Assembly (NCBI GenBank): GCA_973895155.1
Contig: OZ316894.1
Location: 1,690,457 to 1,754,456 of the forward strand
Length of the DNA: 64,000 nt
Source of the DNA: Marsupella aquatica
Taxonomy: Eukaryota > Plantae > Marchantiophyta
Reading direction: 5' to 3'
This document shows, piece after piece, positions 1 to 57,900 of this stretch. Position 1 is the first letter of the stretch, and every line of letters begins with the position of its first letter. Made by a program: the position numbers and the translations under genes. A model generated the notes under the pieces. It saw nothing but the letters and a program-made list of their open reading frames with translations, did not search any database and had not been told where the DNA came from.

Positions 1-281
1 TGTCTATGACTATACATGATTGGACTCTGATATATATGGTCATGGATGTACGTGTAGAGGCAGTACATGTGAGGACAGCGGAGGAGTTGACACCCTCAAA
101 CATTTAGGAATTTTGTCTCATTCACTTGAGAATAGGTACATGACTCAGGCACCTATATTTTTTGTTTTTTTGTTTTTTTGGAACGTTATGCTACGTATTT
201 TGGCAAGTACAGTCGGGGGTGAAATCCTTAACAGGAAGTGTATTTTTCACTTGCATAATAAAATGACAGGGTGCTGAGTGC

Positions 282-21721: not shown

Positions 21722-24292
21722 CTAGCTCAATACTCGTGCGTTGCACAAAAGAAGTTGTGTCGGCCAAGATGTCATTGAGAAAAAATGATGCGTGTCAGCC
21801 AAGAGGTCGTGGAGAGAGAAGATGTTGTGTCGGCCAAGAGGTCGTGGAGAGAAAAGATGTTGTGTCATCCAAGAGGTCGTGGAGAGAAAAGATGTTGTGT
21901 TAGCCAAGATGTCGTTGAGAAAAAGGATGTCATGTCGGCCAAGAGGTCGTTGAGAGAAAAGATGTTGTCTCGCCCAAAAGGTCATTGAGAGTAACTTAGA
22001 TGTTGTGTTGCCCAAGAGGCCGCTAAGAGAAAAGAAGTTGTGTTGGCCAAGATGTCGTTGAGAAAAAAAGATGTCCTGTTGGCCAAGAGGTTGTTGAAAG
22101 AAAAGATGTCATGTCGGCAAAGACATTATTAAGGGAAAAGATGTCATGTCGGCCAAGACATTGTTCAGGGAAAATACCCGTGCGTTGCACAAAAGATGTT
22201 AAGAAAAAAGATGTCGTGTCGCCCAAGATGTTGTTATGTGAAAGATGTCACAAATTAAAAAGATGTCGTTAAGAAAAAAGAAGTCATTTTTGCCAAAGAT
22301 GCCATTATGTGAAAGATGTTGAATGTTAGGAAAAAGGTGTCATTTTGCCAATGATATTGTGAAGTAAAAGTTGTTATTAAGAAAAATGGTGTCATTTCAC
22401 CCAAGCTATCATTATGTGAAAAATGTTATGAAGTAAAAAGTCAAGGAAAGAAGGAGCGAGTCTTTTTCTTTGTTTTATTTTTTTACCCAAAATGCCCCTT
22501 CATTTGAATGGCGACCACTCTATAAATTGGCGCAACGTTATATTATCAATTTCAGGTTTAGTGTTTTAGGGTTTAGGGTTTAGCAAAGATGATCATTCTA
22601 TCGGTATCCTTTCAATCCCCATGCATTGCATAAAAGATGTTGTTGAGAAATAGATAGTCGTGCAAAAGATATCGTTGAATAATTTTTTTTTGAAAATATA
22701 TTATTGCACAAAAAGTTTTGTTGAGTGAAAGATATCATTGTGCAAAATACTGGCTACATCAGCCACACAAGTTCCATTTTCTTTTTTCTCCTTGCACACA
22801 AAATTCTTGAATAAAAGATGTCATTACACAAAAGACTGGCTATGACAATCACAAAAGTATAACAAAATGAGAGGTGTTTTTTTCTTCTTTTTCTTTTAAA
22901 ACATTTTTCTCTTATATTCCTTTTAAACATAACAGTTTTTTATTGATCTAGTGACTAAAATATTATTAACAATTAAGCTCCTCTTACCACTATTATACAA
23001 AATTATGCATTTTTGAAACTGCTATATGGTGAATTCACCTTTCAGATTTTGTCTTATTCAAAGTTTTGGTGTCATATATTTTTATTTCAATGTGCCTTAT
23101 CAAGGGGTAGCCTGTGTATCATATACACTTTTCATTATTTCAATGTGCCTTATCAAGGGGCAGCCTGTGCATCATATACATTTTTAATTATTTTATGGAC
23201 CCCTTTAATTTTTAATTTTTAGAATTCTAAAGTATTTTGAACTTATTTTGGCAGCCCCTTTATAAATTTTAATGTTTGTGATTTATTAGAGATGAAATGA
23301 ATGGCTCCACCACTTGAACATTCTCATGAATGATAGAAATGATTTTGATTGTGTCTTAAAGTTGTTCTCATGTCTTTCTTTCCTAAGTTTATGGTTTTTA
23401 TTGTAATGAGTGTTATTCATGAGGACATTGAATTAAGTGTACACATCATAGCATCCTTGATTGTACTTTTCATTGTGCACCAATCCTTCTAGTTATGTTC
23501 TCATATTTTATTTACTTTTAAATCAGTACAAGACAAAAACTCAAGCATGTTCCACGATGAACATGCTATACTATATGCACACAATATTGAACATGTACAA
23601 TACTTACTTGTATATGAATATATACAATATTTAGTTCCAGGGATCATGGAGTGAGTATCCTCCTTGATCCTAGTGCATTCATTTTTTGTTGGTGTCTAGT
23701 GTGATTATTGGCTTGTCTTGGACAATGGTCTAACTTTTTGTGAGTCACACTAAACTCAATTCACACTTTGTCATTATTATTTACCTTTTGATCAGATTTT
23801 TAAAAAACATTTCAGGTTGCAAATTTGAATGAAAATCTTACTAATAAAGCCCGAACTTCAGCCTACTTTTCACAAGCTAGGGTCTAGAGTGAAGCCTCTA
23901 GACCATAACTCTCTGGTCATCATGTGCATGGTCATCATATACATGGGAAAAACTTATGACATGACTATGATGTATATACATGTCAATTTTATGTGATAAT
24001 TTTTAAATATTTACATTAAAAAAAATATAGGTAGTATGGCCCCACCACAACATATGTGCATTGAACATGGATGTGCAAACAAAAAACCTGCGCACATCAA
24101 GGAGAATGATATATTATATATGACTATTAAAATGATGGGGTTTTTTTATCATTTCATTAATCTTCAAAGAATATGAATTAAAAATAGATTTTGATAATTC
24201 TTTATTGTCCTCTCTGCTATTCACGTTCAAAGAACGGGTAATCGGGGCTAGTCGCTCTAAAAAGTGACGCACCTATATATTATAGTTTAGGA
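21722..24292 (-). mobile_element. Non-autonomous Helitron (2571 bp)
   Basis: The minus strand starts TCCTAAACTATAATATATAGG and ends GTGCAACGCAC hairpin + GAGTATTGAG + CTAG. It sits between A and T with no TSD and has no RepHel ORF. Confidence 0.85.
21750..22440. repeat. Degenerate ~30-bp minisatellite (GGCCAAGAGGTCGTGGAGAGAAAAGATGTTGTGTC-like) inside the Helitron 3' region
   Basis: About 20 progressively decaying units. Includes a second copy of the Helitron hairpin at ~22177-22190. Confidence 0.8.
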
Positions 24293-25449: not shown

Positions 25450-26976
25450 TTAGTTCCCTAACTTCCCGATAGAAATCAAAATAGTGCAATTGTTGATGGA
25501 CTGCACTTTAGTGAAGAGTGCCTGCACTGGATTAACAACAACAGAGCTTGGCCGCAAGTTCTCAAAATGCTCATCCCAGTTGTAGTCGTCAACCCATCCG
25601 TCATCCCTCCAGTCGACCTCACCATCTGCATTCACACCACAAGATAATTCACTCTCAGTTAAGGGAGCCAATTCAATCACCATAGGAACCATCTCATTTA
25701 GAGGAGTCGTCATCTCAGTTGTGGCAGGGGTCTGAATCTCTGCTGGACCCATTGTTGGAGCAATGTCTGCACCAGGTCACAAAATTACACTAATTAGTGA
25801 CTGCAGATATTTAGCAGACAATATCAAAAGGCTGCGGATCGATCGACATTACAAAGATTCCACAAGATTACCTTCACCTCCCTTCTTGCGTTTGTGAGGC
25901 GAGACATCGTCATCATCTCCATTGACCACCTTCTGCTTGAAGCGTTCTGTCTCCTCATGAAAATTTGCTTCAAAACTGGATGAGCCATTGGCACATTTCT
26001 GGGTTGCTATAACCTTCGACTCTGTGCTGCGATCGTATCGGGCGTAGGCACCTTGGCTCTTATGGCCTATGATAATCATCCCAACTTCTGCAGGAACGCC
26101 TTCAGTCGCTATGCGAGTCACACAAGTGGTCCTGCCAGATTTGTTAGTGACACCATTTGTAACCAAACCACACTCCCGATGAATCTCCTTGAGAATACCA
26201 CTCAACTTCTTCACAGACACGCGCTGAGTCGAGTACCATGCATGAGTCCGAGGGCTATCTATGCATTGGTAAAATAGAAATATGCCTGCAACAGGCAAAT
26301 GAGAAATCAAACTCTCGACCGTCTCAACCATGGAACTATCGTAGCTGGTTACAACAGGCCAAAAATGCTCATCCTGATACCGACCGAGACCAACTTTGTA
26401 GTTCTTTGATAGACGCTCATCATATCTTACGAACCATCCAGTCTCATTGCATCCAATTTCGAAGTCTGTCTTCGCCAACCGATGCAACTCATCACCTCCA
26501 CGAATGGCAAATTGAAACAGAAGGAAATACATTGCACGACGCTGTAGGCCACGAGGGTAAATAGTGGCTGTGCAAGGGTGAGATAATATAGTGGCCTCAT
26601 CAGCCAATGAGATGATAGATGCCTTTTTACGAGGAAAATTAGCACCATTAGATCTTGACCGCTCCATCGCTAACACGCAAGCAATGCCAACTTGCTTAAA
26701 CAGAGGACTCTCGCACATATGAAATATGGGCTCGTCCATCCCTGTTTGTACAATTCGAACTTCCTGTCGGCGCCTCAATACTCGATGAAACGCACGGTAC
26801 AGTCCCATTAACGTCTGGGTCGGATATAAGCTGTCGTCCTTCTTACAAATTTGCTCAAAAAACTTGATTAGGATTGATGCACATTCAGCCAAAGAGAGAT
26901 CCTCGAATGGAACACTCGCATCCCACCCTTTAAACTCTCGAAATTGAGTCAATCGATTGATTGCCCATCGATCCAC
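25450..26976 (-). CDS. Tyrosine recombinase (Crypton/DUF3504-like), with one intron; N-terminal extension to ~27340 carries an in-frame stop at 27022-27024
   Basis: Catalytic layout FAIRGGDEL (R), LSKN (K), TNKSGRTT (HxxR position, H->K), IIGHKS (H), YARYDR (Y). Upstream motif KKDDSLYP..TL. A phase-1 GT-AG intron at 25871-25767 joins the 25766-25450 exon in frame. Confidence 0.8.
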
Positions 26977-28051
26977 AGGAGCGCTTGGGTTAGAACCGCC
27001 CTCGGCAAGGGTCTTTTGGAACTATGGATCTTCTGCAAGAAACTCTACAGTTGCTTGGCCCTGAACTTCGATCACAATCGGGTCTTTCTTGGGACGCTCA
27101 TCTACATGTAAGCTGTCTAAACTCGCATTCAGCTGTTGCAGCTCTGCCATACAATTGTCACCAAATGTGCAATCATTCGAGGAACTACTCATTGTGTCGT
27201 CAACGATAGCAGCGCCTTTCATCATTGACATCCCTATGCTAAATGATGGCCTGTCCATCCAAATCAACAATGCACAAACTAGGAGGTCCTCCAACAGCTT
27301 CAATTCACCAACCTGCAGTTGCATATGGACAGTCCATGGCAATAGCAGTTAGAGCAGATAAAGCGACAATGACCAGATTGCACATAAGAAAATGAGTTAG
27401 CAAGCATAGCAAGACAAATGTGACCCGGCCCTCTCAGCGCCTCTGGCCCGCCAACCTCCACATACGTGTACAATCCATGGCTGGAATCGGCAGCAAGAAC
27501 CGATGGCAAGAGCATTCAACTCGTCCTCCAATGCTTCTCGCTCGGCACCCTGTAGGCGCACACAACTATCCATGAATTTAGACCAAACAACGTCATCAAA
27601 CGGAGAATGCGACATGATTTATCAACATAAACCAATGCACAAACAAATCTGCAAGCAATAGTGTGACCCAGCCCTCCAACACCTCCGGCTCGCCAACCTC
27701 CAGTCGCGCATCAACAAGGTAATATGCAGCAATGTGAGTAGCGAAATCAATCAATCTCCCGATAGTGAGCCGCTGGCAACACGAAGTATACACGACAACT
27801 CAAGAGCGCAGTGCACCGGGAGCACAACACCAATCTACAAATCTACGGAACATCTGCGACATAATGACAAATACCTGAATAGTGAGCGCCATATAGCTGG
27901 CGGCCTCTGGTTGGCATTTGACCTAAGCCGTTCGATTAGCCCGCCCTAGCTCCTTTCAATCGGAGCTGTCCATCAGTTTTCACGACCCTGACACAGCACG
28001 ACGCTTGGAAGGCCATCCATTCCTCCCGATGTAATCTCCGTCGTTCGTTTT

Positions 28052-30038: not shown

Positions 30039-33000
30039 ATGGCGGTGGTAAGTGAAGTCGTTGCAGTATGCAGTTCAATCCTCGGCATTGTGTCAAAGAT
30101 CGACAATGTCAAGGAAGACTGGTTCACTGCATCAGCCGAGTACCAAAGTGAAGCGGAAATCCTCCGCTCAAGGCTCATCTCCTACGTGGAGCAAGTCCGT
30201 ATCCATCAGCAACCAGTGGATAGTACTATGATGAAGACTTTGAAGAGAGCCGAATCAACATTGAAGAGGGCGGAAGCAAGATTGACCAGCTTGGAAGAAA
30301 GCGTCGACAGCAACCAGTGCTGTTCGCAAATCTGGTGGTTGTATGCAAAGGTGACCATGACCCTTTTCCCAGAGAAATTAGAAAGCACATTGAAGAAGGT
30401 GAACCAGGACCTTGATGGCATCCCCAAGATACTCAAGGACGAACAGGAACTCTCTGGTCTACTGCGAGAAGCAGGCAAGAGTCGAGCCATCTCTACAGTT
30501 GTCCACAATAACGATAATAAATATGTGCCAATAGAAAAGTCACAGTCTGCGGTCATTCAAGCCATTGAAAATTCTGACGGCCCTCCCATGATACTACTGC
30601 ATGGTGGAGTAGGTAAAGGCAAGTCCACTCTTGCCAGATACATGTGTGAGCGCTACGGGCAATTTGGAGAAAAACAAGGCCTCTTTGATCACGTGATTGT
30701 GGTGTCGTGTGCTAATAGCTCCATAATTGATCTTGCCACCAAGCAATATGAAATCTTGGAGCAGCTTAGTCCGGCGAGTTTAACGGAGGAAAGCCGCTCA
30801 AAATCTGGAACTGGAAAATCTGGGGAGAGTATGGGCTCAAAGTCTAGAATTGCAGAAGCTCTGCAAAAGTTCTTCATTGGCAAGAAGGTTTTGATGGTCT
30901 TAGACGACGTTTCAGATAAGGGATTTCTGTACAAAATGTGGGAGGCTGCGAGAGATGGTAAAGATGATAAGATCCTCATCACTTCCCAATTGTCGAACAT
31001 ATGCGATGACTTTAAACATGACTCTTTGCTTATTACGATGGAAGATCCTACCAAAGAGGAAGCGAGACAGATCCTTGCTTCTCTTGTGGGGCTGGAGAGT
31101 AATCGAATTCCTGAGAATATACAGGTTAGTTCCCCTCAAGCACATTTCACCTTGGTCGTTTATTGAGGAGGTACGTGTTTTGTTAAAATGTCCGTTGTAT
31201 TTCTTTTTAATATCTACCAACTAAATTTAGTCCTCACTGTTTTATCTTTGTATGCAGGGGATAGCAGATGAGATGATCAAAGCTACAGCGGGAAATCCCT
31301 TAGCTTTGGCATGTTTGGCAAGTAACTTTGCTTATGCAAAGCATGCTAAAGATAAAACAAAGAAGCGGGATTGGCAAGCTGCTTGGACAGAGTTATCTCA
31401 GTTGCTAGGCAATAAAGCGATGGCTATCGTGGTAGGGCAGAATAGTGAGACTGCAGCTAGAAGCCTGTCGGGTGCTATGAAGATTTGTATAGATTCTCTT
31501 CAAACAGAGGATGCAAAACACACACTGTTCCTAATGTATGCATGTAAAGGAGAATCGGTTCCTGAAGAGGTTCTGCGGATTTTGTGCTCTAGTAAGATGT
31601 CAAATTCTACATTCAAGCGGTCCATAGATGAATTGTCTATGCGAGAGCTACTGAAGCCTACGACTGATACATTAGCATCTAAGATGAACTTGGAGAAGGA
31701 ACCAAATGTCGAGGAGTCTCCTGCATGGTTGCTACAGTCTTTAGTGAAGCTCTTTATGGAAAGGCATCTGGTTGGGAAACAGGAAATGAGTGCAGTGATT
31801 GGGGCCTTGGTTGGCGATGACGAGTTTCCACCTGAGTCGAGCTCCAAATACAAGGTAGAGGACTATGAACAGGAAATAGTGAAGATTACAACCGGGACTG
31901 GAACAGAAACCACGGAGAGTGATGAGATGAGGGTGACAATCGCTCTGTGTGCTCTGTACTTTGACCGCCGCCATACCGATCAAGGCGTGACTCGAGCTGT
32001 GGCTAAGGCTTCCAAAATATCCAATCTTGAAGATTCGGATGAGAACATCAATGATCTGAGGAGGAAGGCGATTGAGCCGTTGATATGGCTTCTCGACAAG
32101 CCTGAAGAGGACGACGAATGGACGAAAAGCGATAAATGCTGTGTGAGGAAGGTAGTGTCCTGTCCCCTTGAGTATGTTCTTTCGTTTGCAACTTATGTCA
32201 GTCCAAATTGAGGTTAGGGAATCATTCGAGTAACTCTAATACTTCGGCACTCACAGATCTAACAGTTCACATGTTTGCGCATGACCGATTGAGTCAAAGT
32301 TTACTAGCCGTACTTTCAGCCATTGTTTGCAGTTGCCACTTCTTTTGAAAATCAAGGACGGTTCTGTGTAAACTATACAAATTCGACTTCTCCCGTGAAA
32401 TTACTGTTTGATAGCACGTGGCTATGAGGTAAACGCAAGTATTATTTATCTTGTAAGTCTACTGTACAGAATAACAATTTAGGTTCTATATGTGATAGTT
32501 TCTAAAATCAGAGGTCGAGTCTAAGAAGCATGATTTCTTAGACGAGCCATGTGTCTTGGTGAACTTTGTTTGCCTTGTTATTTCACATGATTTCTTGGAA
32601 ATCGTAACAGTTCTGATCTATATTAAACCAATCGCGGTTGTTTCAAGTGATGTTGTGTCACTGAATTGTTTTGGACTTGTGAATCACTTACTTTGCAGGT
32701 TGTTCTTGACTACATATGCAAGCGCCAGCTAAACAACGAGAACATCATTTACCTGTTGAAGTTGGCTGCTGGTCCTGCTGTACAGCTGGCCACTCTCAAG
32801 GCTATCGCTCACATTACATCAATAGAAGAAACACCCCTGCTCAAAGAAAACACAGTCCAGTTTTTACAAGCTGTGGTCGACCTTTTGCATTTGAAGGAGG
32901 GTTTACACACTGGCGTTCAAGAGGCGGCCTCTACGGCACTACGTCGTGTTTGTTGGAAGGCCGCGGGTGACAAATCAGCAACCCTTGTTGCTAACATGTC

Positions 33001-35310
33001 GTCTGTTCTGGACGTGTTGGTACACTCCCTTGCCATTCCCGTTTGGGAGTCAGAGGCTTTTGCCGAAAACGCAGCATATGCTTTGAAGGGCTTAGCATTC
33101 TCGGAGGAAGAGGACATTGAACAAATAATTGTGAACAAACAGGACCTACTAGCTAGTCTTGTGAATTGCTTGTCTCAGAATTCCACGCCTAGTTTGCAAA
33201 AAGCCGCAGCAGGGGCTTTGGAAAATCTAGCTTGCACTCAAGATGACGCTGTCAAGCTGAGAATCGCCAATGAAGAAGGGGCTGTAATTGCCCTTGCGAA
33301 TTGCTTGTCGAAGGATGAAAATCCCCACTTACAAATACGAGCAGCAGCGGCTCTACGAAATCTAGCTTCTTCGAACGATGACTTTTGCAAGTTGAGAATC
33401 GTTAATGAGAAGGGGGCTCTAGTTGACCTCGCGAATTGCTTGTCAAAGCATGACAATTGTGAGTTACAAATAAAAGCAGCAGGGCTCCTGCGAAATCTAG
33501 CTTGGACTCTAGATGACTCTCTTAAGTGGAGAATCGCCAATGAGAACGGGGCTCTAGTTGGCCTCGCAAATTGCTTGTCAAAGCATGACAATCGCGAGTT
33601 ACAAATAAAAGCAGCAGGGGTCCTGCGAAATCTAGCTTGGACTCTAGATGACTCTCTCAAGTTGAGAATCGCCAATGAGAAGGGGGCTCTGGTTGGCCTC
33701 GCAAATTGCTTGTCAAAGCATGACAGTCGCGAGTTACAAATAGAAGCTGCCGCGGCTCTGCGAAGTCTAGCTTTTTCAAAAGATGACTCTCTCAAGTCGA
33801 GAATCACCGATGAGAAGGGGGCTCTGGTTGGCCTCGTCAATGTCTTGTCAAAGAATGACAGTCGCCAGTTACAGATACAAGCTGCTGGGGCTCTGCGAAA
33901 TCTAGCTTGGACTCCAGATGACACTCTCAAGTTGAGAATCGCCAATGAGAAGGGGGCTCTAGTTCGACTCGCGAACTGCTTGCGAAAGCGTGACAATTGC
34001 GAGTTACAAATAGAAGCTGCAGGGGCTCTGCGAAATCTAGCTTTTACAAAGGACGACTCTCTCAAGTTGAGAATCGCCAATGAGAATGGGGCTCTGGTTG
34101 GCCTCGTAAATTGCTTGTCACAATGTGCGAACCCTGATGTGCAAAGAGAGGCAACAATAGTGATATCAAACCTAGCTCTTGCTCCAGATGGAAAGGCGAT
34201 CCTTCAAGGAGCGGAAGGTCTGTTGCAGGGCCTTACAAGCTTGGTGGAAGATGACGTGCGTCGGGATATTCGAAGTTCAGCAGTACAAGCGCTGTTTCGA
34301 ATAGACCTGACACTAGCTAAGGAAGTGGGGTTGCTCTCGGCACAACTAGATGGCAAAGCTTTAAGGTATGGTCGTGAATTCTTAATTGATTTCGAGCACA
34401 ACCTAGATTGTATAAAGTTCGATGGAAGGGAACAAGATCATGCAACAAAGTGGCCAGTGTAAAAAAAGAATTCCGTAGTGAGTAACGAAGCTAAGGGCAA
34501 TATCTGTACAGAGGCTAGTTTATCGTGCAGCAAGATACTACACTATACTAACCATTCTGCCTAATCAGCTGACCTGACAAGCTCAGTTGGATAGATAATT
34601 AACCTATACTTGATTCGAGGGTTCAACTAGCGGAAGAGTTCAGAATTTCCAGAATTTGGTAGACCTTTTCCCTCGTTTGTCTCTTGATCTGCCTCGGTTA
34701 GCAGGCAAGCGAATTTGTGGCCAGCATTTTGACGATAAGATTGGGAGTTTTCTTAGCATTGCAGATTCCAGCCGATGATTTATTGTACCATAGTTTGGAA
34801 GCGTCCAAGCCTAGTGGCGTTGGATAGGATAACACAGCTACACTTGAAATATGGTAGTAGCCGGAGTTGAGAAGGGAGGTTGAACATGTTGACATCCAAC
34901 TGCACGTGAATGTTTTGCAGCGTACATTAACTAAGTTTCATATTTGTGCTTGCAGTCATAGAATTTTTGTAAAAGCAAAATTTGGAGACTTTGAAGGGGC
35001 ACTGGATGATGCCAACGAGGCAATCACGATGCCGGATGGCGAGAGGTTTTTTATCTTGCAGGAGAGAGGTGTCTTGAAACGAATGATGGAAGACCTTGAG
35101 GGAGCCCTGGCTGATTTGGAGGAAGGATTAAAACTAGAAACGAATGACTACGAGATGCTGAAGCATCGTGGTTATGTCAAATCCTTGTTAAATGACGTGG
35201 AAGGCGCTCGAGCAGATGCAGAGTGGGCTCTATCGATCCAATCCTCAAGGGATGACAGCGATGACTACTTGGGAGCAACCCCTGTAGAATACTTGGGCTA
35301 CAAGCTGTAG
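30039..35310 (+). CDS. Non-canonical NLR-like STAND protein copy 1: 4-helix/RPW8-like CC + NB-ARC + Armadillo repeats (7 core units) + TPR; 1333 aa
   Basis: Exons 30039-31124, 31258-32151, 32699-34365, 34956-35310, all GT-AG with matching phases (4002 nt). Walker A GGVGKGKST, Walker B KKVLMVLDDV, RNBS-B KILITSQ, GLPL-like GNPLAL. ARM units of type LANCLS..N..LQ..AA..LRNLA. TPR exon GDFEGALDDANEAI / EDLEGALADLEEGL / NDVEGARADAEWAL. Confidence 0.9.
33158..34102 (+). repeat. Seven tandem 135-bp (45-aa) Armadillo repeats with high internal DNA identity
   Basis: Exact 135-bp period with recurring AATTGCTTGTCAAAG...GAGTTACAAATA...CGAAATCTAGCT...AAGTTGAGAATCGCCAATGAG. Confidence 0.95.
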
Positions 35311-37537: not shown

Positions 37538-39805
37538 AGCAGTGGAACAGATACAGAGAACTGTGGAGTGTTGCGCGTTGAATCAAAGTAGTGAAAAGCT
37601 GCGCTGAACCACGCCGTGGATTACCCTCTAAGCGAATGATGAAGCTTGAAGATGAGTTTTAAGTCACTCCTTGCTCATCAATGTTCGTTCTCTCTCGATG
37701 ATCATCTATCTTATGATATTTTACTCACTGCTATTTCCTACTGTGAAATTGATCTGCTCTATAATCTCGTACTTTTCCACTTGAAGAAGGCTTGAACGCT
37801 GTGAAATTGAATTTTAATGTAGTTGACCCGTGTGTATCTTTTGCAAGGTCATAGATCCTGGGCGTCTGAGTGAAGCACTGTCGGGACCTTTGAAACCCTC
37901 TCTGAATGGGGCCACTTCGGCAGGGGCTGCAGATGGGAATGTTAGGACCCCCCCTGAGAGTCCTGGCGCGGATGGAGGGAAAGATGGGTAACTGGATTCA
38001 ATACTTGCCGCTGTAAGTTTGTTACTCCTCCAAATTATGCTGTTCTGCTCGATTAAACTATCCCCGGATTAACAAACTCTGCAACCTCTTTGTCTGTGAT
38101 AAATGCGTTGTGTCTCTTCGTAAACCATTTAATTGTGACCAGCAAATCATCACTTGCTACCTCTGTGGCTTTGAGAGTAATCCGCAAAGATCGGGTGTGC
38201 AATGCAATTTGACCGCTGCTCACGTGAGTCCTAACATTGGTGCCGTGCAGGTGAAGCTTCTTTTTGCTGGAGAGAGCAAGTTATGTGACCAGATATTCTA
38301 TCATCTAGACCGACATCGAGAAATGGCCTTTGCAAAAGTCACGGAATCAAATACTACCATGCTTACCAGCTTTGCGGATGCCATTGCTAGAAGCAAAAAG
38401 TCACGAGAAAAGCTGTTTGTTCTGCTGGACATGTATGAGACCATGCGTGACCTTTCGCCAGACGTTTGTAGAAACCTTATCCTTCTGACATACTGTAAAT
38501 GTTTTTTATGTGCTGAAAACTTTGGTTGTTCATTTTTGGGTGTAGTTGGTACTAGGGTAGCTTGCTGGGAACCAGACCTGCTACCGCAGTTCTTATATCA
38601 CAGTTCCTGGAAATTGGTTAATTGTGAAATGCTTTCCAACCAACCAAAATCAAACCCGTTCTTTCTGAAGCTGATGGGATCTTGCATTCCAATTGACAGA
38701 TTGAATTAATCTGATCAGGAGAATAATGCGGCAGGCACACGTGAAGTGGCCAGTAATTTGTTGACGACTGCGAGTGATACACGCAATTGAATTGATGCAA
38801 CAAAGGCTCCTGTTAATGATGGAACTGTCAAACCGCTTACAAGCTTTGTCATCAATTACCTCAAGTTTCTGCTTACGTAAGTCCTTCCGTTCCTCAGTGA
38901 AAAGTTTTTGTTGCCCACATGATGGGCGTGAGAGTCTGATGAAGTAGATATTATGGTTATTGATTGGTACCCCTACACCACTACTCCGCTTTATCAGAAT
39001 GTCAAACCAGTGACTCGTTGCCATTTCGAATTTTTGTCAATGTAACTTTCTAAACTTTTTGTTGGTCCTCTCGTTCTCTTTTGAAGTAATCTTTTGAAGT
39101 AATCTTTGCTACATGAGTTTGCCGAAGGGCGTTCATCCAAGCGAGGTTTTGACACCAAGATACCACGATGCACAGGATTGCGGAGTCTTGTGGTTTGCTC
39201 GGCCACTACAGTACTGAAGCAACTGTTTGGGGAAATGGACAGTGGAGAAAACTCAAATTCCAAGCTGGCAACTTCTGTGAATCTGATCATCCAAAGTGCT
39301 CCAAAGCAACTCAGATTAGAAATCAAAGCTCTGGATCCGGCTCTCACTCAGCTCTTTCTTCTCAACAATATTCACTACATGATGAGATCTGTCCGAAGGT
39401 GGGTTGGCAAACGAATGCCTCACTAGCAAAGCCTGGATTGTGAACTAGTTTGCCATTTCTTTTTAGTTCAGCGTTTTCTACTTGTGACGGAAAGGCAGCA
39501 GGTTTACTTGCGTACATAAGAATTTGATTTCTGCAAGATTATATTTCCAATTTTTATCCTGTGCAATTAACAATTGATCGTGTGTGAGATTGCTGATTGG
39601 TGTCATATTTCTCGGTTGTTCTGGTAAACTATTTTCTTCTGACTTCATAGTTCGCCAGTGAATGCCTCAACCATCAGTCACACATGAAACTACATTTATA
39701 TTTGCAGGTCGGAAGCGAAAGAGTTGTTGGGATGATAGGGTGTAACGACATCTACAACTTGTGCAGCAGCATGCATCTATATGTTAGTGGTCTGCCTGGG
39801 GAAGG
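37538..39805 (+). pseudogene. EXO70A: Exocyst subunit Exo70A partial pseudogene (intron-containing, middle exons)
   Basis: MMKLEDEFKSLL; VKLLFAGESKLCDQIF...DAIARSKKSREKLFVLLDMYETMR; DATKAPVNDGTVKPLTSFVINYLKFL; DPALTQLFLLNNIHYMMRSVRR|SEAKELLG**. These match Exo70A1 motifs but carry stops and frameshifts. Confidence 0.85.
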
Positions 39806-42848: not shown

Positions 42849-45800
42849 ATGGCGGTGGTAAGTGAAGTCGTTGCAGTATGCAGTTCAATACTCGGCATTG
42901 TGTCAAAGATCGACAATGTCAAGGAAGACTGGTTCACTGCATCAGCCGAGTACAAAAGTGAAGCGGAAATCCTCGGCTCAAGGCTTAGCTCCTACAAGGA
43001 GCAAGTCCGCATCCATCAGCAACCAGTGGACAGTACTATGATGAAGACTTTGAAAAGAGCCGAATCAACACTGAAGAGGGCGGAAGCAAGATTGAAGGGC
43101 TTGGAGACAAGCGTCGACAGCAACCAGTGCTGTTCGCAAATCTGGTGGTTGTATGCAAAGGTGACCATGACCCTTTTCCCAGAGAAATTAGAGTGCACAT
43201 TGAAGAAGGTGAACCAGGACCTTGATGGCATCCCCAAAATACTCAAGGACGAACAGGAACACTCTCGTCTACTGCGAGAAGCAGGCAAGAATCGAGCCAT
43301 CTCTACAGTTGTCCACGATAACGATAATAAATATGTGCCAATAGAAAAGTCACAGTCTGCGGTCATTCAAGCCATCGAAGATTCTGATGGCCCTCCCATG
43401 ATACTACTGCATGGTGGAGTAGGTAAAGGCAAATCCACTCTTGCCAGATACATGTGTGAGCGCTACGGGCCATTTGGAGAAAAAAAAGGCGTCTTTGATC
43501 ACGTGATTGTGGTGTCGTGTGCTAATAGTTCCATATCTGATCTTGCCACCAAGCAATATGAAATATTGGAGCAGCTTTCTCCCACGAGTTTAACCGAGGA
43601 AAGCAGTTCAAAATCTGGAACTGGAAAATCTGGGGAGAGTGTGGGCTCAAAATCTAGAATTGCAAGAGCTCTCCAAAATTTCTTCATTGGCAAGAAGATT
43701 CTGATGGTCTTAGACGACGTTTCAGATAAGGGATTTCTGTACAAAATGTGGGAGGCTGCGAGAGATGGTAAAGATGATAAGATCCTCATCACTTCCCAAT
43801 GGTCCAACATATGCGACGACTTTAAACATGACTCTTTGCTTATTACGATGGAAGATCCTACCAAAGAGGAAGCGAGGCAAATCCTTGCTTCTCTTGTGGG
43901 GCTGGAGAGTAATAGAATTCCTGAGAATATACAGGTTAGTTCCTCGAGTAGATTTCACCCTGGTCGTTTATTGTGGAGGTACTTGTTTTGTTAAGTTGTC
44001 TGCTGTACATCTTTCTAATGTCTACTAACTAGATTTAGTCCTTACTGTATGTTTTTATCTTTGTATACAGGGGATAGCAGATGAGATGATCAAAGCGACA
44101 GCGGGAAATCCATTAGCTTTGGCATGTTTGGCAAGTAACTTTGCTTATGTAAAGGATGCTAAAGATAAAACAAAGAAGCGGGATTGGCAAGCTGCTTGGA
44201 GAGAGTTATCTCAGTTGCTAGGCAATAAAGCGATGGCTATCGTGGCAGGGCAGAATAGTGAGACTGCCGCTAGAAGCCTGTGGGGTGCCATGAAGATTTG
44301 TATAGAATCTCTTCAAACAGAGGGTGCAAAACGCACACTCTTCTTGATGTATGCATGTAAAGGAGAATCGGTTCCTGAAGAGGTCCTGCGGATTTTGTGT
44401 GCTGGTATGAAGATGTCAAATTCTATTTTCAAGAGGTCCATAGATGAATTGCGCATGCGAGAGCTACTGAAACCTACAACGGATACATTAGCATGGAAGA
44501 TGAATTTGGGGAACGGACCAAATGACGAAGTGTCTCCTGCATGGTCCATACAGTCTTTAGTGAAGCTCTATATGGAACGGGATGTGGTAGGGAAACAGGA
44601 AATGAGGGCAGTGATTGGGGCATTGGTTGGTGATGACCAGTTTCCACCTGAGTCAAGCACCAAATACAAGGTACACGACTATGAAACCGAAATATTGGAG
44701 ATTGCAACCGGGACTGAAACAGCAACCGTGGAGAGTGATGAGGTGAGAGTGACAATTGCTCTCTGTGCTCTGTACTTTGACCGCCGCCATACCGATCAAG
44801 GCGTGACTCAAGCCGTGGCTAAGGCTTCCAAAACATCCAATATTGAAGACTCTGAAGACAACATTAATGATCTGAGGAGGAAGGCGGTTGAGCCGTTGAT
44901 ATGGCTGCTCGACAAGCCTGAAGAGGACGACGAATGGACAGAAATGGATAAATGCTGTGTGAGGAAGGTACTGTCCTGTCCCCCTTGAGTATGTTCTTTC
45001 CTTTGTAACTTACGTCAGTCCGAATTGAAGTTAGAGAATCATTCGAGTGACTTTTATACTTGGGTACTCACAGATCATGTTTGCGCATGACCGATTGAGT
45101 CAACTTTTAATAGCCATACTTCAGCTATTCTTCACAACTTCGCACTTCTTTTGAAAACCAAAAGGACGGTCCTCTGTAAAATATACAATGTCAACTTTTA
45201 CAGTGAAAGTAGTGTTTGATAGCACGTGGTTGAGTGGTAAATGCAAGTAACATTTATCTTGGAACTCTATTGGACAGAATAACAATTTCTATATGTGATA
45301 GTTTTGAAAGAGTGCGAGTCTTGGAAGATTGATTTCTTGTGGTAGTTGAAGAGCCATGTGTCTTAGTGAGGTTTTCCTGCCTAGTTTCTCTTCGACAGGA
45401 GTTCTTATCTACATTCAACTAATCGAGGTTGTCTGCAATTATATATTGTCACTGAATTGTTTTAGAATTGTAAATCACTTTCTTTGCAGGTTGTTCTTGA
45501 CTACATATGCAAGCGCCAGCTAGATAACGAGAACATCACTTACCTCTTGAAGTTGGCCCCTTGTCCTTCTGCACAGTTGGCCACTCTTGAGGCTATCATT
45601 CACATAACACGGATAGAAGAAACGCCCCTGCTCAACGTAAACACAATCAGCTTTTTGCAAGCTGTAGTTGACCTTATGAACTTGAAGGAAGGTTTCCGCA
45701 CCAGTGTCCAAGAGGCAGCCTCTTTAGCCCTGTCTCGTCTTTGTGTGAAGGCCGCGCGTGACAAATCAGCAACCCTTGTTGCTAACTTGTCGCCTGTTCT

Positions 45801-47272
45801 GGACGTGGTGGTACGCTCCCTTGCCATTCCCGTTTGGAAGTCAGAGGCATTTGCCGAAAACGCAGCATATGCTTTGATGGGCTTAACATTCTCGCAGGAA
45901 AAGGACATTGAACAAGTAATTGTGAACAAACAGGACCTACTAGCTAGTCTTGTGAATTGCTTGTATCAGCAATCCAAGCCCAGTTTGCAAGCAGCCGCAG
46001 CAGGGGCTTTGCGAAATCTAACTTTTAGTCTAGATGAAGCTGTCAAGCTGAGAATCGCCAATGAAGAAGGGGCTCTTGTTGGCCTCGTGAATTGCTTGTC
46101 ACAATGTGAGAACCCTGTTGTGCAAAGAGAGGCAACAGCAGCGATAACAAACCTAGCCCGTACTCCAGATGGAAGGGCGATCCTTAAAGGAGCGGCAGGT
46201 CTGTTGCAGGGCCTTACAAGCTTGGTGGGAGATGACGTGCGTCGGGATGTTCGAAGTTCAGCAGTACAAGCGCTGTTTCGAATAGACCTGACACTAGCTA
46301 AGGAAGTGGGGTTGCTCTCGGCACATCTAGATGGCGAAGCTATAAGGTATGGTCGTGATTTTTTTTAATTGATTTCGAGCACAACCTAGATTGTATAAAG
46401 ATCGATGGAAGGGAACAAGATCATGCAACAAAGTGGCCAGTGTAAAAAAAAGAATTCCGTAATGAGTAACGAAGCTAAGGGCAATATCCGTACAGAGGCT
46501 AGTTTATCCTGCAGCAAGATACTACACTATACTAACCATTCCGCCGAGTTAGCTGGCTTGAGAATCTCAGTTGGATAGAGAATTAGCCTGTATTTGATTC
46601 GAGGGTTCAACTAGCGAAAGTGTTCAGAATTTCCAGAATTTGGCAGACTTCTTCTCTCATTTGTCTCTTGATCTGCCTCGGTTAAGCAGGCAATCGATTT
46701 GTGGCAAGCCTTTTGACAATAAGGTTGGAAGGTTTCTTAGCATTGTAGAACCAGCTCATGATTTATTGTACCATACATTTTAAGACGTCCAAGCCTAGTG
46801 GCATTGGATTGAGTAACATAGCTATACTTGAAATATGGTTGTAACCGAAGTTAAGAAGAAAAGGGTGAACATGATGTGTTTGCAGCGTATAACGAAGTTT
46901 CATGTTTGTGATGGCAGTGATAGAATATTTATAAAAGCAAAAGCTGGAGACTTTGAAGGGGCACTGGCCGATGCCAACCAGGTAATCACGATGCCGGGTG
47001 TCGACAGGCGGTTTGTCTTGCAGGAGAGGGGTGTCTTGAAACGAATGATGGAAGACCTAGAGGGAGCCCTGGCAGATTTGGACGAAGGATTAAAACTAAC
47101 ATCAAATGACTACGAGATGCTGAAGCATCGTGGTTATGTCAAATCCTTGTTAAATGACGTGGAAGGCGCTCGAGCAGATGCAGAGTGGGCTCTATCGATC
47201 CAATCCTCAAGGGATGACAGCGACGACTACTTGGGAGGAACGCCTGTAGAATACTTGGGCTACAAGCTGTAG
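42849..47272 (+). CDS. NLR-like CC-NB-ARC-ARM-TPR copy 2 with a single core ARM unit; 1064 aa
   Basis: Exons 42849-43934, 44071-44967, 45490-46346, 46918-47272 (3195 nt, open). Same intron positions and phases as copy 1. One 135-bp core unit at 45949-46083. Confidence 0.9.
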
Positions 47273-48164
47273 CAGTGGAGATTATTACTCGGTGTTCCAC
47301 AGTTACCGGAACCGTGTTGGATTTGTAGATAATTGAATCGCGCCATTCGTAGATTGTTTGTGTGAAGCAGAGCGTAGCTTGAATCACGATGATGATATGC
47401 GATTCACTCTCTGCGACTGGAAAGCTTGGAAAAAAAACTTCGTAGCACCATATGTGCAGGCTGGCCCTGCACAGAGGGTGTCAAAGATGATTGTATTCCT
47501 GTGTGATATTCAATTGTATGTAATTCAATAAACGGATCTGATCATACTAAGAGCTTATTCAGGCATGGGTTTCAATATCAAGGACCAAGAGCCCGCGGCG
47601 GAAAGTCGTCATTCAGCATGCTCACTTGGGGAGACTCAGACATCAATCTGTCTAAATTTTCGTCGTACCTTGTTACTTCTGTAGTATTATGCCGTTAAGA
47701 AAGACATGAGAATCCCCCTGCTGTTAGGAGGGATTTTGGCTGCTCTTCCAAAACGCCTTTCATAGAGAAACAGAGAGATCCACGAAGGGCAAAAGCGTAG
47801 CTTTCGCCTTTCAAAGAGAAACAGAAAGATCCAAGAATGGCAAGGACAATAACATAATCATGATGTTGCTTTGCAACTGACATGTTCTATGTCGACAGTT
47901 TTTGTGGCTAAACGTAGGAAGAGGTGTACAAATTCGAAGCTAGAATCGGTTTCTGCAGGAGTGGGGATGAGATTACAAATTCAAGACAAGCTCGCGATTC
48001 GTTCACTACAGAAGCCGTGTGAATTACTAAGGGGTGCCAAAGCTATTGACAGTAGAACAGAAATAGCTCCACAAAGCCCGTTAAACATCATGTTGACAAT
48101 GTCTCCAGAAAAGGAAGGGGAAATACAGTTTTGAATTGAGAGGGTTTTGTCAGGCTAAAACAAG

Positions 48165-50258: not shown

Positions 50259-51163
50259 TCGAACTTCTCTGTTTTACAGTTCTTCGTATTTTCCCGCAGT
50301 CCTTTTTTAGTAAATTCTATGTTGATGCAGTTTGTGCAATCGCCACAGTTGCACGAAGATGTGAGATCAAAGTCTTCCTTTCCACAAGCTCTTCAGTAGT
50401 GATTTCCCTGCGCGCAATTCGAAGCTAGCAATTAATCACGTAGGAAGCATAGCTCAGTCGACTTCGTGCATACCGAGTTGCCGAGTTCAGTGAGAACTTC
50501 GCCTTGACTTTGGACCGGGGTATTGCCAGATTGCATTATGCAGATACAAATGTGGGAGATCAAGCGTGTGTTGATGTATAACACCAGCCCGAATAAACTG
50601 AGGTCAAGTTGAGTTCGGGAGTGACAGCCCTCCCTCGCCGCACGCAGGTATTCTGGCCGTGCATAATTAGTCAACTTGTTTCTGCTGTAGAGCAGGCCTC
50701 AATTTCATCGAACATTGAGGTCGCCGTTTCTGCAATCTGAAATTCTACAGCTCGAACCTTCAATTCAGGTCGCCGGAGATGGTCATTACCGACGTTGGCC
50801 GCAAGGTATGTGTTGTTCATACATGTTGAGTGAGCTTGCACTAGGACCATATCTGTACTTCAATCGTCGAGCTTGTCTTTGCATTGCCCTAGCCCTCTCC
50901 TTCATTCAGCACGTACTCGACAGAACTTGTAATGGTTGCAGCTCTGCAGATCTATTTTGTTTCGACAAATAGAGTAGAAACTTTTCTGGGTATTGCAATG
51001 CCTCGATTAGCCCGTGATGCCTCGATCAGATCGGGATGCAGTATGTACAGGAGCTCGACAGTGAAGTGATGTTTCTTTCCTTCCGGAGCGTTGATCTCTT
51101 AGAACTTAGTAGATCTACTTTTACGAGAAGTCTTGGGTTGCATTTGTGTGTGTGGGTACGTGT

Positions 51164-54100
51164 ATGACAATAGCGAGTTACAAACACAGGTAGCACGGGC
51201 TTTGAGAAATCTAGCCTCCTCAAGACATCACGAGTATCTCGGGCTCAGATCCGACAATGAGCGTGCTCTGGTTCGCCTCGTGAATTGCTTGTCTCGTCAA
51301 TCCAAGCCTAGAATGCAAGCAGCCGCGTCAAGGCGTTTGCGAAATCTGGCTGCTACTGGAGATGACGCTGTCAAGCTGAGAATTGCCAATGCGGAAGGGG
51401 CTCTAGTTGGGGTAGTGAGTTGCTTGTCAAACGATAACAACAAGAAATTACAGTTGCATTCAGCATGGATTCTGGTAGCACTAGCAGGTTCAAAAGATGA
51501 GTCTCTCAAGTTGAGAATCGCCAATGACGAGGGGGTTGTGGTTGGCCTCGTGAATTGCTTGTCAAAGCATGACAATCCCGAGTTACAAGCAACCGCAGCA
51601 GGGGCTTTGCTAAATCTAGCTATTAATGGAGATGAGTCTGTCAAGCTGAGAATCGCCAATGAGGAAGGGGCTCTGGTTGCGGTAGTGAGTGGCTTGTCAA
51701 ACAATAAGAACAGTAAATTACAACTCCGTTCAGCATGGATTTTGGCAGCACTGGCAGCTTCAAAAGATGAGTCTTTCAAGTTGAGAATCGGCAATGAGGA
51801 CGGGGTTCTGGCTGGTCTCGTAAATTGCTTGTCAAAGAATTACAATGTCGTAAATTGCTTGTCAAAGCATTACAATCCTAAGTTACAAACAGCCGCAGCA
51901 TCTGCTTTGCGAAGTCTATCCATTGGGGGTGAGGCTGTCAAGCTGAGAATCGCCAATGAGGAAGGGGCACTAGTTGGGGTAGTGAGTTGCTTGTCAAACA
52001 ATAAGAATAGTAAATTACAATTGCATTCAGCAACGATTTTGGCAGCCCTGGCAGATTCAAAAGGTGAGTCTTTCAAGTTGAGATTCGGCAATGAGGACGG
52101 GGTTCTGGCTGGTCTCGTAAATTGCTTGTCAAAGCATACAATGCTGAGTTACAAACAGTCGCAGCAGCCGCTTTGCAAAAACTTTCAATTGGAGGTGAGG
52201 CTTCCAAGCTGAGAATCGCCAATGAGGAAGGGGCTCTAGTTGGCATAGTGAGTTGTGTGTCCAATGATGAAAACGGCAAATTACAATTGTATTCAGCATT
52301 GACGTTGGCAGCACTGGCAAATTCAGAAGATGAGTCTCTCAAGTTGAAAATCGCCAATGAGGATGGGGTTCTGGTTGGCCTCGTAAATTGCTTGTCAAAG
52401 AAGGACAATCCCAAGTTACAAGTAATTGTAGCAGTGGCTTTGGGAAATCTAGCTTGTACTAAAGATGACGCGGTCAAGCTGAGAATTGCCAATGAGAAAC
52501 AGGCTCTAGTTAGCGTAGTGACTTGCTTGTCAAATGATGACAACGGCGAATTGCAAACACAGTCAGCACGGATTTTGGCATCTCTAGCAGCTTCAAAAAA
52601 TAATTCTCTGAAGTTGAGAATCGCCAATGACAAGGGAGTTCTGGTTGGCCTCGTAAACTGCTTGTCAAAGCATGAAAATGCCAAGTTACGAGAAGTGGCA
52701 GTAGGGGCTTTGATGAATCTTGCCACTTCACAGTCCCTCAAGCTGAGAATTGCTAATGAGGAAGGTGCTATAGTAGGCCTCGTGAATTGCTTTTCTCAGA
52801 AAGCCAATCCAAGTTTGCAAGCAGCTGCAGCAGGGGCTTTGCGAAATCTAGCTTGTACTACGGATGACGCGGTCAAGCTGCGAATTGCCAACGAGGAAGG
52901 GGCTCTGCTTGGCATAGTGACTTGCTGGACAAACGACCACAACCCCCAATTACAAAGACATTCAGCATACATTTTGACAGGTTTAGCAGCGTCAAAAGAT
53001 GAGCCTCTCAAGTCGAGAATCGCCAAAGAAGTGGGGGTTCTGGTTGGCCTCGTCAATTTTTTGTCAAAGCATGACAATAGCGTGTTACAAGCACACGCAG
53101 CACGAGCTTTGAGAAACCTAGCCGCTTCAAAAGATGAGTCTGTCAAGTTGAGAATCGCCAATGAGGAGGGTGCTCTGGCTGGCCTCGTGAATTGCTTGTC
53201 ACAATGTGAGAACCCTGATGTGCAAAGAGAGGCAGTCATAATGGCATCAAACTTAGCTCGTGCACCAGATGGAAAGGCGATCCTCAAAGGAGCGGAAGGT
53301 CTTTTGCAGGGCCTTACAAGCTTGTTGGGAGATGACGTGCATCCGGATCTTCGAAGTTCAGCAGCACAGGCGATTTTTAAAATAGACCCGACACGAGCTA
53401 AGGAAGTGGGGTTGCTCTCGGCACAACTAGATGGCCGAGCGTTAAGGTATGGTCGTGAATTTATCACTGATTTCGGCACAACTCTAGATGGTATAAAGAT
53501 GGGTGGAAGGGAACAAGATTGTCCAACGAAGTGGCCAGTGTAGAAAAAGAATTCCGAAGTAAGTAACGAAGCTAAGGGCAGTATTTGTGCGAGTATTTGT
53601 GCATATGCGATGATTCATGAGAGTAGTTTATCCTGTAGCAAGATGATGTACTATACAAACCATTCCGCCTAATTAGCTGGCTTGACAAGCTCAGTTGAAT
53701 AGAAAAATAAACTCGCCTCGATTCGATGGTTCAACTAGCGGAAGAGTTCAGAATTTCCAGGATTTCGCAGAGTTTTTTCCTCATTTGTCTTTTGATCTGC
53801 CTCGGTTAGCAAGCAAGCGAATTTGCGGCGAGCCTTTTGACGATAAGATTGGAAGGTTTCTTAGGATTGCAAACTCCAACAGAGGATTTATTGTACCCTA
53901 CAATTGGAGACGTCCAAGCCTAGTGGCGTTAGATTGAGTGGGTACTTGAAATGTGGTAGGAGCCAACTTGACAAGAAAGGGTGAACGGATTGAAATCCCA
54001 GTGCGCGTGATTGTTTGAAGCGTATAACTAAAGTTTCATATTTGTGATGCAGTCATAGGATTTTTGTAAAAGCAAAATTTGGGGACTTTGAAGGCGCACT

Positions 54101-54407
54101 GGACGATGCCAACCAGGTAATCACGATGCGGGATGTCGAAAGGCGGTTTGTCTTGCAGGAGAGGGGTGTCTTGAAACGAATGATGGAAGACCTTGAGGGA
54201 GCTCTAGCAGATTTGGACGAAGGATTAAAACTAAAAGCAAATGACTACGAGATGCTCAAGCATCGTGGCTATGTCAAATTTTTGTTGGATGACGTGCATG
54301 GCGCTCGCGCAGATGCAGAATGGGCTCAATCAATCCAACCCTCAAGGGAAGACACGGACTGCTACTTGGGAGGAACCCCGGTAGAATACTTGGGCTACAA
54401 ACTGTAG
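51164..54407 (+). pseudogene. NLR-like copy 3: headless ARM array (14 units plus a partial one) + cap + TPR exon; lacks CC and NB-ARC; one frameshift
   Basis: Upstream sequence homologous to 41.5-41.77 kb is fused directly to mid-repeat sequence at ~51164. 1-nt deletion at ~52137 (AAGCATACAATG vs AAGCATTACAAT). Conserved last intron 53447-54052 and intact TPR exon 54053-54407. Confidence 0.85.
51277..53183 (+). repeat. 14 tandem ~135-bp ARM units, largely alternating A/B types
   Basis: 1907 bp = 14x135 + 30-bp duplication (51818-51877) - 3 - 3 - 6 - 1. A type: LVNCLSK..N..LQ..AA.AL.NL. B type: VVSCLSN..N.KLQL.SA.IL.ALA.SK. Confidence 0.9.
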
Positions 54408-57204: not shown

Positions 57205-57900
57205 CCAATTACCTTGAACCATGTAGACGTGGCAGACTGTACAGTAGGCCTAGCACTAATTATTGTGTGAACCATTTGGACGTGGTAGACTGTACAGGTA
57301 GGCCTAACACTAATTACTGTGAACCATGTAGACGTGGTAGAATGTACAGTCTGCCTAACACTAATTACTGTGAACCATGTAGACTTGGTAGAATGTCCAG
57401 TCTGCCTAACACTAATTACTGTGAACCATGTAGATGTGGTCGACTGTACAGTAAGCCTAACAGTAATTACAGTAAACCATGTAGACGTGGTAGAATGTAC
57501 AGTATGCCTTAACACTAATTACTGTGAACCATGTAGACTTGGTATACTGTACAGTACGCCTAACCCTAATTAATGTGTGAACCATAGAGACGTGGTAGAC
57601 TGTACAGTAGGCCTAACACTAATTACAATGAACTATGTAGACGTGGTAGACTGTACAGTAGGCCTAACACTAATTACTGTGAACCATGTAGACGTGGTAG
57701 ACTGTACAGTAGGCCCCAGTCGACTGTAGTGAGTGTAGCCCTAACACTAATAACTAATTACTTTGAACCATGTAGACGTGGTAGACTGTACAGTAGGCCA
57801 CAGTCTACTGTAGTGAGTGTAGGCCTAACACTAATTACTGTGAACCATGGAGACGTGGTAGACTGTACAGTAGGCCCCAGTCTACTGTAGTGAGTGTAGA
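57205..57900. repeat. 51-bp minisatellite, ~12 units (ACTAATTACTGTGAACCATGTAGACGTGGTAGACTGTACAGTAGGCCTAAC)
   Basis: 51-bp period (e.g. 57309 to 57360). The last three units carry an added CAGTCTACTGTAGTGAGTGTAG segment. Confidence 0.95.

Follow-up and report, generated by a model that had tools for sequence, protein, structure and literature searches.

The closest described systems to the gene discussed here are fungal NLRs (nucleotide-binding leucine-rich repeat-type receptors) with high internal conservation (HiC). Near-identical repeats with selected sites on the concave face have been described for their WD40, ANK and TPR classes (PMC4986451; PMC12222747). HET-E and HET-D with WD40 repeats, and the Podospora proteins with TPR and ANK repeats, are presented as STAND NTPases whose C-terminal repeats undergo concerted evolution and change in number as well (PMC4986451; PMC12222747; PMC13449251). 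The cross-kingdom survey of such proteins took in ANK, TPR, WD40 and LRR (leucine-rich repeat) receptors only (PMC13449251). This work concerns gene A of the liverwort Marsupella aquatica, found in a window of 64,000 nucleotides (GenBank assembly GCA_973895155.1, contig OZ316894.1, positions 1,690,457 to 1,754,456), and above all the stretch at 33158-34200, which is part of the expanded armadillo (ARM) repeat array of a gene likely to encode an NLR-type immune receptor. We believe, with a probability of about 65%, that gene A belongs to a liverwort family of diversifying immune sensors with a combinatorial binding surface, an ARM version of the fungal HiC sensor. The liverwort family differs from the fungal one in its repeat, an ARM unit of 43-46 aa, and in its host, a land plant.

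Proteins joining an NB-ARC domain to ARM repeats are already in print: rice RLS1 (PMC10030324), fern proteins with a coiled-coil (CC) domain, NB-ARC and ARM repeats (PMC12512272), Selaginella (PMC7145615) and NLRscape (PMC9825502), in which non-LRR solenoids are rare, numbering fewer than 500 beside the roughly 55,900 sequences that have LRRs. Like gene A, RLS1 is described as having CC, NB-ARC and ARM in place of LRR, and plant CC-NB-ARM proteins have been linked to cell death and resistance (PMC10030324; PMC12512272). RLS1 is given as a protein of 1040 aa with three ARM motifs, conserved across plants, whereas the liverwort family carries 10-25 ARM repeats, in most cases a TPR tail, and arrays of recent origin. 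Rice Ptr/Pi-ta2 is also an ARM-repeat protein and confers blast resistance; it is listed as an exception to the NLR class, and the part of that source consulted mentions no homogenised array (PMC11106262). Canonical plant CNL and RNL receptors end in LRRs, unlike gene A with its ARM and TPR repeats. The word 'ARM' is absent from the main text of the preprint by Chia et al. (10.1101/2022.10.19.512840), whose supplements may list family genes. We found no published report of ARM arrays in liverwort NLRs in a search that left supplements and most subscription papers outside its reach, so an ARM-based HiC-like sensor family in liverworts is provisionally new to the literature.

Gene A has the tripartite layout of an N-terminal helical domain, an NTPase and C-terminal repeats. 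Its NB-ARC domain matches PF00931 with 53 bits against a cut-off of 23.5 (E 3e-14), the P-loop and Walker B are intact, and the GLPL-like motif reads NPLAL. The best fold matches to a model of the CC and NB parts are NRC2/NRC3, ZAR1, Sr35 and Apaf-1 (for NRC2, Z 15.5, root-mean-square deviation 2.7, 183 residues aligned). The N-terminal bundle is modelled as four helices and has no Pfam Rx_N or RPW8 match at E 0.01; its Atlas scores are 0.84-0.86, below 0.9, with an RPW8/MLKL-like domain on top at 0.86, and we treat the resemblance to RPW8/MLKL domains as a lead only. The ARM exon matches PF00514 (E 9e-28), and the C-terminal part is made of ARM and TPR repeats with no LRR match. Pfam matches of the same exon to ricin-B, T7 gp1.2 and phospholipase A2 were dismissed, as no stretch passed.

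A single-sequence AlphaFold2 (AF2) model of the ARM exon (mean pLDDT 70.3, array blocks 73-93) has three helices every 45 residues. Foldseek ranks OR497 (a designed ARM protein), beta-catenin and Vac8 highest, and importin-alpha is matched as well. These proteins have the same three-helix repeat and the same register of an Asn in the third helix (H3); by alignment, the Asn in the H3 strings quoted by the original prediction is in register with that of designed ARM protein 4rzp. Gene A differs from importin-alpha, beta-catenin, Vac8 and the designed proteins in its 45-aa unit, its small residues at position 33 and its NB-ARC fusion, and its family has often lost the Asn. Concave-face Asn residues of ARM proteins are described as binding the peptide backbone, with Glu30 and Trp33 lining the site and position 36 given as buried in the design (PMC4756613). 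Our numbering follows the designed-ARM scheme with the H3 Asn set as 37. We take this to be its number there, and we take positions 26, 29, 36, 40 and 41 to belong to the groove. The groove face was assigned by register rather than by model coordinates. The set was fixed before the selection tests, after the window units and the homologs P0001-P0005 had been seen, and was applied unaltered to P0015, P0049, P0062 and P0072, which were seen later.

The gene A array has a period of 135 bp (45 aa) with 6.8 copies at 82% matches. The original prediction held that its scaffold is nearly constant and that seven quoted H3 strings vary. The strings are real, all of them in frame at 33143-34087 on the third helix of the modelled three-helix repeat, and its figure of about 22 units agrees with our count of 22 in the window (seven in gene A, one in its neighbour gene B, 14 in gene C). 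The nearly constant scaffold does not hold at 33158-34200. Across units A2-A7, 24 of 45 columns vary and 21 are invariant, and the variable columns make up 7 of the 16 in the H3 span against 17 of the 29 outside it. H3 as a whole is not the variable part of gene A either, since its nonsynonymous difference (pN) of 0.149 is below the 0.166 outside. The eight groove columns have a pN of 0.246 against 0.142 elsewhere (p 0.079) and hold 28% of the differences where 18% are expected, an excess that is not significant (permutation p 0.079 and 0.055; 0.15 against polar columns only). Throughout A2-A7, position 29 is always Ile and position 36 always Arg, and position 33 is either Gly or Ala.

Genes B and C are tandem paralogs that follow gene A. 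Gene B has the exon layout of gene A and is short of exactly six of its seven units (810 bp). As predicted, the CC and NB-ARC domains differ little between A and B (93-94% identical, dN/dS 0.37 for CC and 0.28 for NB-ARC), with dS of 0.04-0.2 by domain. The N-terminal flank of ARM repeats has 78% identity and a dN/dS of 0.69, and the predicted concentration of flank differences is borne out: in the flanking ARM repeats, 18 of the 48 groove positions distinguish A from B, compared with 37 of the 211 remaining positions (Fisher p 0.003). Units A2-A7 form one clade (support 94) whose non-groove identity is 0.75 within the clade versus 0.50-0.67 to other arrays, and they are mosaic (PHI-like test p 0.0035). 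The arrays are homogenised within each gene, and units have been gained and lost inside one exon.

How far this matches a fungal HiC array depends on the measure. The identity threshold of Dyrka (at least 85% over 100 aa) is reached by five of the 15 relatives measured (P0002, P0003, P0015, P0049 and P0072); gene A stands at 82% and gene C at 67-68%. On Psim, which scores how similar the repeats are to their consensus (at least 0.7), by our own approximation rather than T-REKS, A1-A7 score 0.79 and A2-A7 0.83, each gene C unit type 0.78 and the whole of C 0.67. Concerted evolution and repeat exchange are seen here as in the fungal arrays; selected concave-face sites are seen in the pooled 22 units only, not in gene A alone.

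Those 22 units were run under a GY94 codon model written for this analysis, with unit C5 taken without its 30-nt duplicate and the broken codon of C7 as a gap. The likelihood-ratio tests (LRTs) give 33.9 for M7/M8, 22.6 for M8a/M8 and 24.4 for M1a/M2a, and M8 puts about 24% of sites at an omega of 2.3. The sites with posterior above 0.9 (M8, naive Bayes) are 40, 30, 25, 33, 36, 42, 29 and 26. All eight lie within H3 or beside it and are spaced as on a helix, six of them in the prior groove set and two adjoining it. With sites fixed in advance, omega is 2.1 for the groove and 0.59 elsewhere. Positive selection in the pooled units is supported, and it is driven by the broken gene C. The site-wise signal that the original prediction expected is thus present in the pool, on or beside the H3 groove face, and diversifying selection on that face also holds at the family level; neither extends to the gene A array by itself (p 0.12).

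The family evidence comes from relatives at the protein level. Among longer proteins, exon 1 of gene A has five matches, each of them an NB-ARC/ARM protein of Calypogeia fissa with 45-69% identity. An exhaustive HMMER search gave 66 clusters; the 32 examined include 28 from liverworts (Calypogeia, Marchantia, Riccia) and one weak Acacia NB-ARC match, and none of those 32 of 66 is a full-length angiosperm CC-NB-ARM protein, so the family is probably a liverwort lineage separate from the RLS1 type. Eight homologs have recent arrays, each with its own consensus unit and with periods of one, two or three units. Of the 11 array classes tested in these eight homologs of Calypogeia and Marchantia, 10 are significantly more variable in the groove than outside it (p<0.05), the array tests covering all but the 44-aa unit class of P0003 and irregular units above 47 aa. 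M. paleacea P0049 has a variability of 0.59 in the groove against 0.16 in the rest, with columns 33, 41, 36, 40 and 30 on top. Polar non-groove columns, our null for a mere contrast of buried and exposed residues, are less variable than the groove in 8/8 sets, significantly so in four of the eight, A2-A7 not among them. Array-bearing genes fall in at least three NB-ARC branches interleaved with array-less members, on a quick tree with SH-aLRT support only. Across the family the copied repeats change fastest on the predicted ligand-contacting H3 face, likely under pathogen-driven diversifying selection.

Several observations weigh against this reading. Gene A alone gives M8a/M8 p 0.12-0.13 and a groove omega of 1.15-1.21, the value of 1.15 standing against 0.64 elsewhere. 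Most of the pooled signal comes from gene C, a truncated, frameshifted copy with an LRT of 23.4 by itself (13.1 for its Asn-type units, 17.5 for its Asn-less ones), and the intact genes A and B together reach an LRT of 2.1 (p 0.074). If the groove is given a synonymous rate of its own, its omega is 1.9 over all 22 units (p 0.019) and significant in none of seven subsets. Null simulations yield LRTs larger than a chi-square distribution predicts, as high as 8.3 with no conversion, which makes the nominal p-values too low. Part of the eight-position groove set is itself assumed. Among the relatives, the 45-aa class of P0003 (P3b) has no significant groove excess (p 0.11), and the C. fissa pair P0062/P0081 has none (10/128 versus 45/657 differences). 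In P0057, a conserved protein with old, divergent repeats, differences among the repeats are likewise greater at the groove (p 0.037), and such differences are thus no sure sign of a continuing arms race. Finally, the sensor-1 and MHD positions are non-canonical, with ITSQ and LQS in gene A where the canonical motifs have the sensor-1 Arg and MHD. The same positions are non-canonical in gene B as well, and many relatives keep the His; the switch may therefore differ from that of ZAR1-type receptors.

Neutral drift is the rival that survives best. It would have crossover-copied repeats diverge freely with the groove as their least constrained surface, while recombination and the decay of gene C inflate omega. 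The gene A groove is indeed compatible with an omega of 1 (p 0.5-0.7), gene C is broken, A2-A7 are mosaic, and a groove omega above 1 is weak once the groove has its own synonymous rate. Yet the neutral class of M8a is rejected, and none of 25 null simulations (0, 10, 22 or 44 conversion tracts) reaches the real LRT, their maximum being 12.2 against 26.2 in the same pipeline; this sets an empirical bound of about p<0.04, weaker than the nominal values. Drift also has difficulty with gene C, which has no in-frame stop across its 14 aligned units and an omega of 0.60 outside the groove, and with the outer polar positions, which stay less variable than the groove in every set. A least constrained surface should not be the conserved one, and in old repeats of ortholog pairs it is: the Riccia pair has 25/200 groove differences against 176/977 elsewhere (p 0.034) and the Marchantia pair 0/96 against 15/429 (p 0.046). 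We consider drift unlikely.

Those same pairs lend themselves to a second rival, one-off tuning, in which the repeats added by each expansion adapt to successive stretches of a single host protein, whether a guardee or a partner outside immunity, and then freeze with no continuing arms race. Conserved members with a protected groove do exist. MpNBS-LRR15 of Marchantia polymorpha and the Riccia proteins R1sor_018913 and R1flu_013883 belong to the same family as gene A, with NB-ARC, ARM and TPR, and differ from it in their old, divergent repeats (52-59% best self-identity in the members measured) and conserved groove. The groove differences among the old repeats of P0057 and the lack of an excess in P0062/P0081 point the same way, and RLS1 is reported to act together with a host protein (PMC10030324). 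Freezing is hard to reconcile with the recent paralogs A and B, which at their low dS already differ at more than a third of the flank groove sites and by six whole units, or with arrays that arose repeatedly and stand in many copies in Calypogeia. We hold one-off tuning to be quite unlikely.

The original prediction went furthest in reading the array as a modular code for extended peptides, like that of the transcription activator-like effectors (TALEs). TALEs share with the gene A family tandem, near-identical helical repeats of variable number; their variation is limited to two adjacent residues that form a few recurring words. Under such a code Asn37 of each repeat would hold two peptide residues, the groove would read side chains independently, and shuffling of units would reprogramme a linear epitope. 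Six of seven gene A units retain Asn37, as do 15 of the 16 P0001/P0002 units tested, most of the variation in P0002 is at 29, 30 and 33, the units lie within one exon and change in number, and natural ARM proteins are described as binding extended peptides through concave-face Asn residues (PMC4756613). The same Asn is kept in only 13 of the 22 window units, being absent from nine, and in one of the 13 P0003/P0004 units tested. The variation takes in some eight positions as well as loops; more than half of the columns of A2-A7 vary, rather than one or two positions per repeat, and only 28-45% of differences fall in the groove. The words hardly recur: 21 distinct four-position groove strings in 22 units, and 19 distinct pairs at 30 and 33. 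Array periods of two and three units point to context dependence, and in designed ARM proteins one H3 is described as contributing to two neighbouring pockets (PMC11228518). A TALE-like code is therefore very unlikely.

A narrower idea, that the Asn37-type arrays (gene A, P0001 and P0002) read linear microbial peptides at about two residues per repeat, as a natural library of recombining ARM binders on an NLR switch, strikes us as quite unlikely as well. If it were true, adding, losing or swapping 135-bp units would reprogramme immune specificity in a partly predictable way, as designers of ARM proteins attempt. The original prediction picked the right surface, overstated the case for the gene A array and over-read it as a code.

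For the diversifying sensor that we favour, we propose the following mechanism. Unequal crossover and gene conversion would copy and shuffle 135-bp units inside one exon, and point changes at 25/26, 29/30, 33, 36, 40 and 42 would then give the superhelix an unbroken new binding surface. Its ligand, either of microbial origin or a host protein that has been modified, would be bound combinatorially, through pockets that adjacent repeats have in common. Once bound, it would trip the NB-ARC switch, allowing the helical bundle at the N-terminus, or the alpha/beta-hydrolase-like domain in two relatives, to signal defence or cell death.

The coordinates of genes A to C are given in the table. Their predicted splice models come from GT-AG sites, open frames and agreement with paralogs and homologs.

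Table. Genes A, B and C and their parts in the window (positions within the 64,000 nucleotides)
Feature	Positions	Strand	Description	Basis
Gene A	30039-35310	+	four exons, 1333 aa, intact, without internal stop	CC-like/NB-ARC/ARM/TPR
Gene A exon 1	30039..31124	+	helical bundle at the N-terminus (about aa 1-146), then the beginning of NB-ARC	GT-AG model, PF00931
Gene A exon 2	31258..32151	+	remainder of NB-ARC and linker	GT-AG model, motifs
Gene A exon 3, N-terminal flank	32699..33142	+	flanking ARM repeats of single-copy type	AF2 model
Gene A ARM array	33143..34087	+	seven 135-bp units, A1-A7	tandem repeat, AF2 model
Starts of units A1-A7	33143, 33278, 33413, 33548, 33683, 33818, 33953			
H3 groove segment of each gene A unit	about unit start +48 to +95			
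Gene A capping ARM repeats	34088..34365	+	splice donor after 34365	
Gene A exon 4	34956..35310	+	TPR domain and C-terminal tail, the tail present in liverwort homologs too	
Gene B	42849..47272	+	intact paralog, 1064 aa	exons 42849-43934, 44071-44967, 45490-46346, 46918-47272
Homolog of DNA 1.2-1.4 kb upstream of gene B	50911..51118	+	directly precedes gene C array	
Gene C ARM region	51103..53446	+	14 units within 51262-53168	
Gene C TPR exon	54053..54407	+		

Gene C has no CC or NB-ARC match anywhere else in the window. Because the homolog of gene B upstream DNA abuts its array, a deletion appears to have removed the CC and NB-ARC exons of gene C. Near 52138 the assembled gene is one base short, a real frameshift or an assembly error, and there is an in-frame 30-nt duplication near 51820-51850. 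The array mostly alternates Asn37-type and Asn-less units at 51397-53168, giving a 270-bp period, and the Asn-less units often have a large residue (Trp, Tyr, Arg) at position 33. The C. fissa proteins P0003 and P0004 alternate two unit types as gene C does, and P0015 and P0072 cycle three. In all three genes the ARM exon frame runs on into intron 3, for about 32 codons to a stop in A and C and shifted in B (34366-34462 in A, with the stop at 34462; 46347-46445 in B; 53447-53543 in C), so a retained intron would yield a form without TPR. Contigs from two sequencing runs of one study are identical to the window at 33254-33515 and 33248-33515, and loose contig ends at 34122 are a hint, and only that, of further unit variants in those two runs.

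Among the relatives, P0002 and P0005 have a longer N-terminus that looks alpha/beta-hydrolase-like by eye, with no such Pfam match there; P0060 does have an alpha/beta-hydrolase Pfam match. P0002 is sister to the CC-bearing P0001 in the NB-ARC tree, which suggests that N-terminal domains have been exchanged within the family. P0003, P0004 and P0015 have no TPR match. P0009, P0010 and P0011 are Riccia and Marchantia ARM-TPR proteins without NB-ARC that have their C-terminal tail in common with genes A-C, and may be the ancestral sensor module or a partner. P0079 is MpNBS-LRR15 itself; it has NB-ARC, ARM and TPR Pfam matches and no LRR match, and its name looks wrong.

The window is eukaryotic DNA, and its Transposase_21 element, Exo70 fragment and GT-AG introns are features of plants. 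The Exo70 gene exons (PF03081, E 3e-15) lie at 37800-39100, between genes A and B. Exo70 proteins are immune guardees in angiosperms, and the adjacency here may be chance. Upstream of gene A, a 389-aa open reading frame (ORF) at 25849-27021 (-) has a weak Phage_integrase match (E 0.003) and may be an element of the Crypton-like, tyrosine-recombinase kind. Between genes B and C there are 275-bp direct repeats, 85% identical and about 1.7 kb apart (48160-48432 and 49895-50263), the second holding a 100-bp tandem duplication; the pair may be a small LTR-like (long terminal repeat-like) insertion. Further away are CACTA-type transposon remnants at 267-4012 (Transposase_21, E 2e-57), long low-complexity ORFs at 5400-9070 (one scanned with Pfam, without a match), tandem arrays outside long ORFs of 35 bp x 11.7 copies (21747-22158) and 51 bp x 10 (57200-57899), and the first part of an SSB-family gene (PF00436, 58046-58744) with an apparent organellar transit sequence.

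The specificity of plant NLRs is known almost wholly from LRR sensors. A liverwort ARM family in which homogenised arrays are built time and again and their groove diversified would show that land plants reached the strategy of the fungal het genes with a third scaffold. Its arrays are natural variants of the scaffold on which modular peptide binders have been designed, and they show which groove residues evolution has explored. Since MpNBS-LRR15 is already annotated in the model Marchantia polymorpha, the function of the family is testable.

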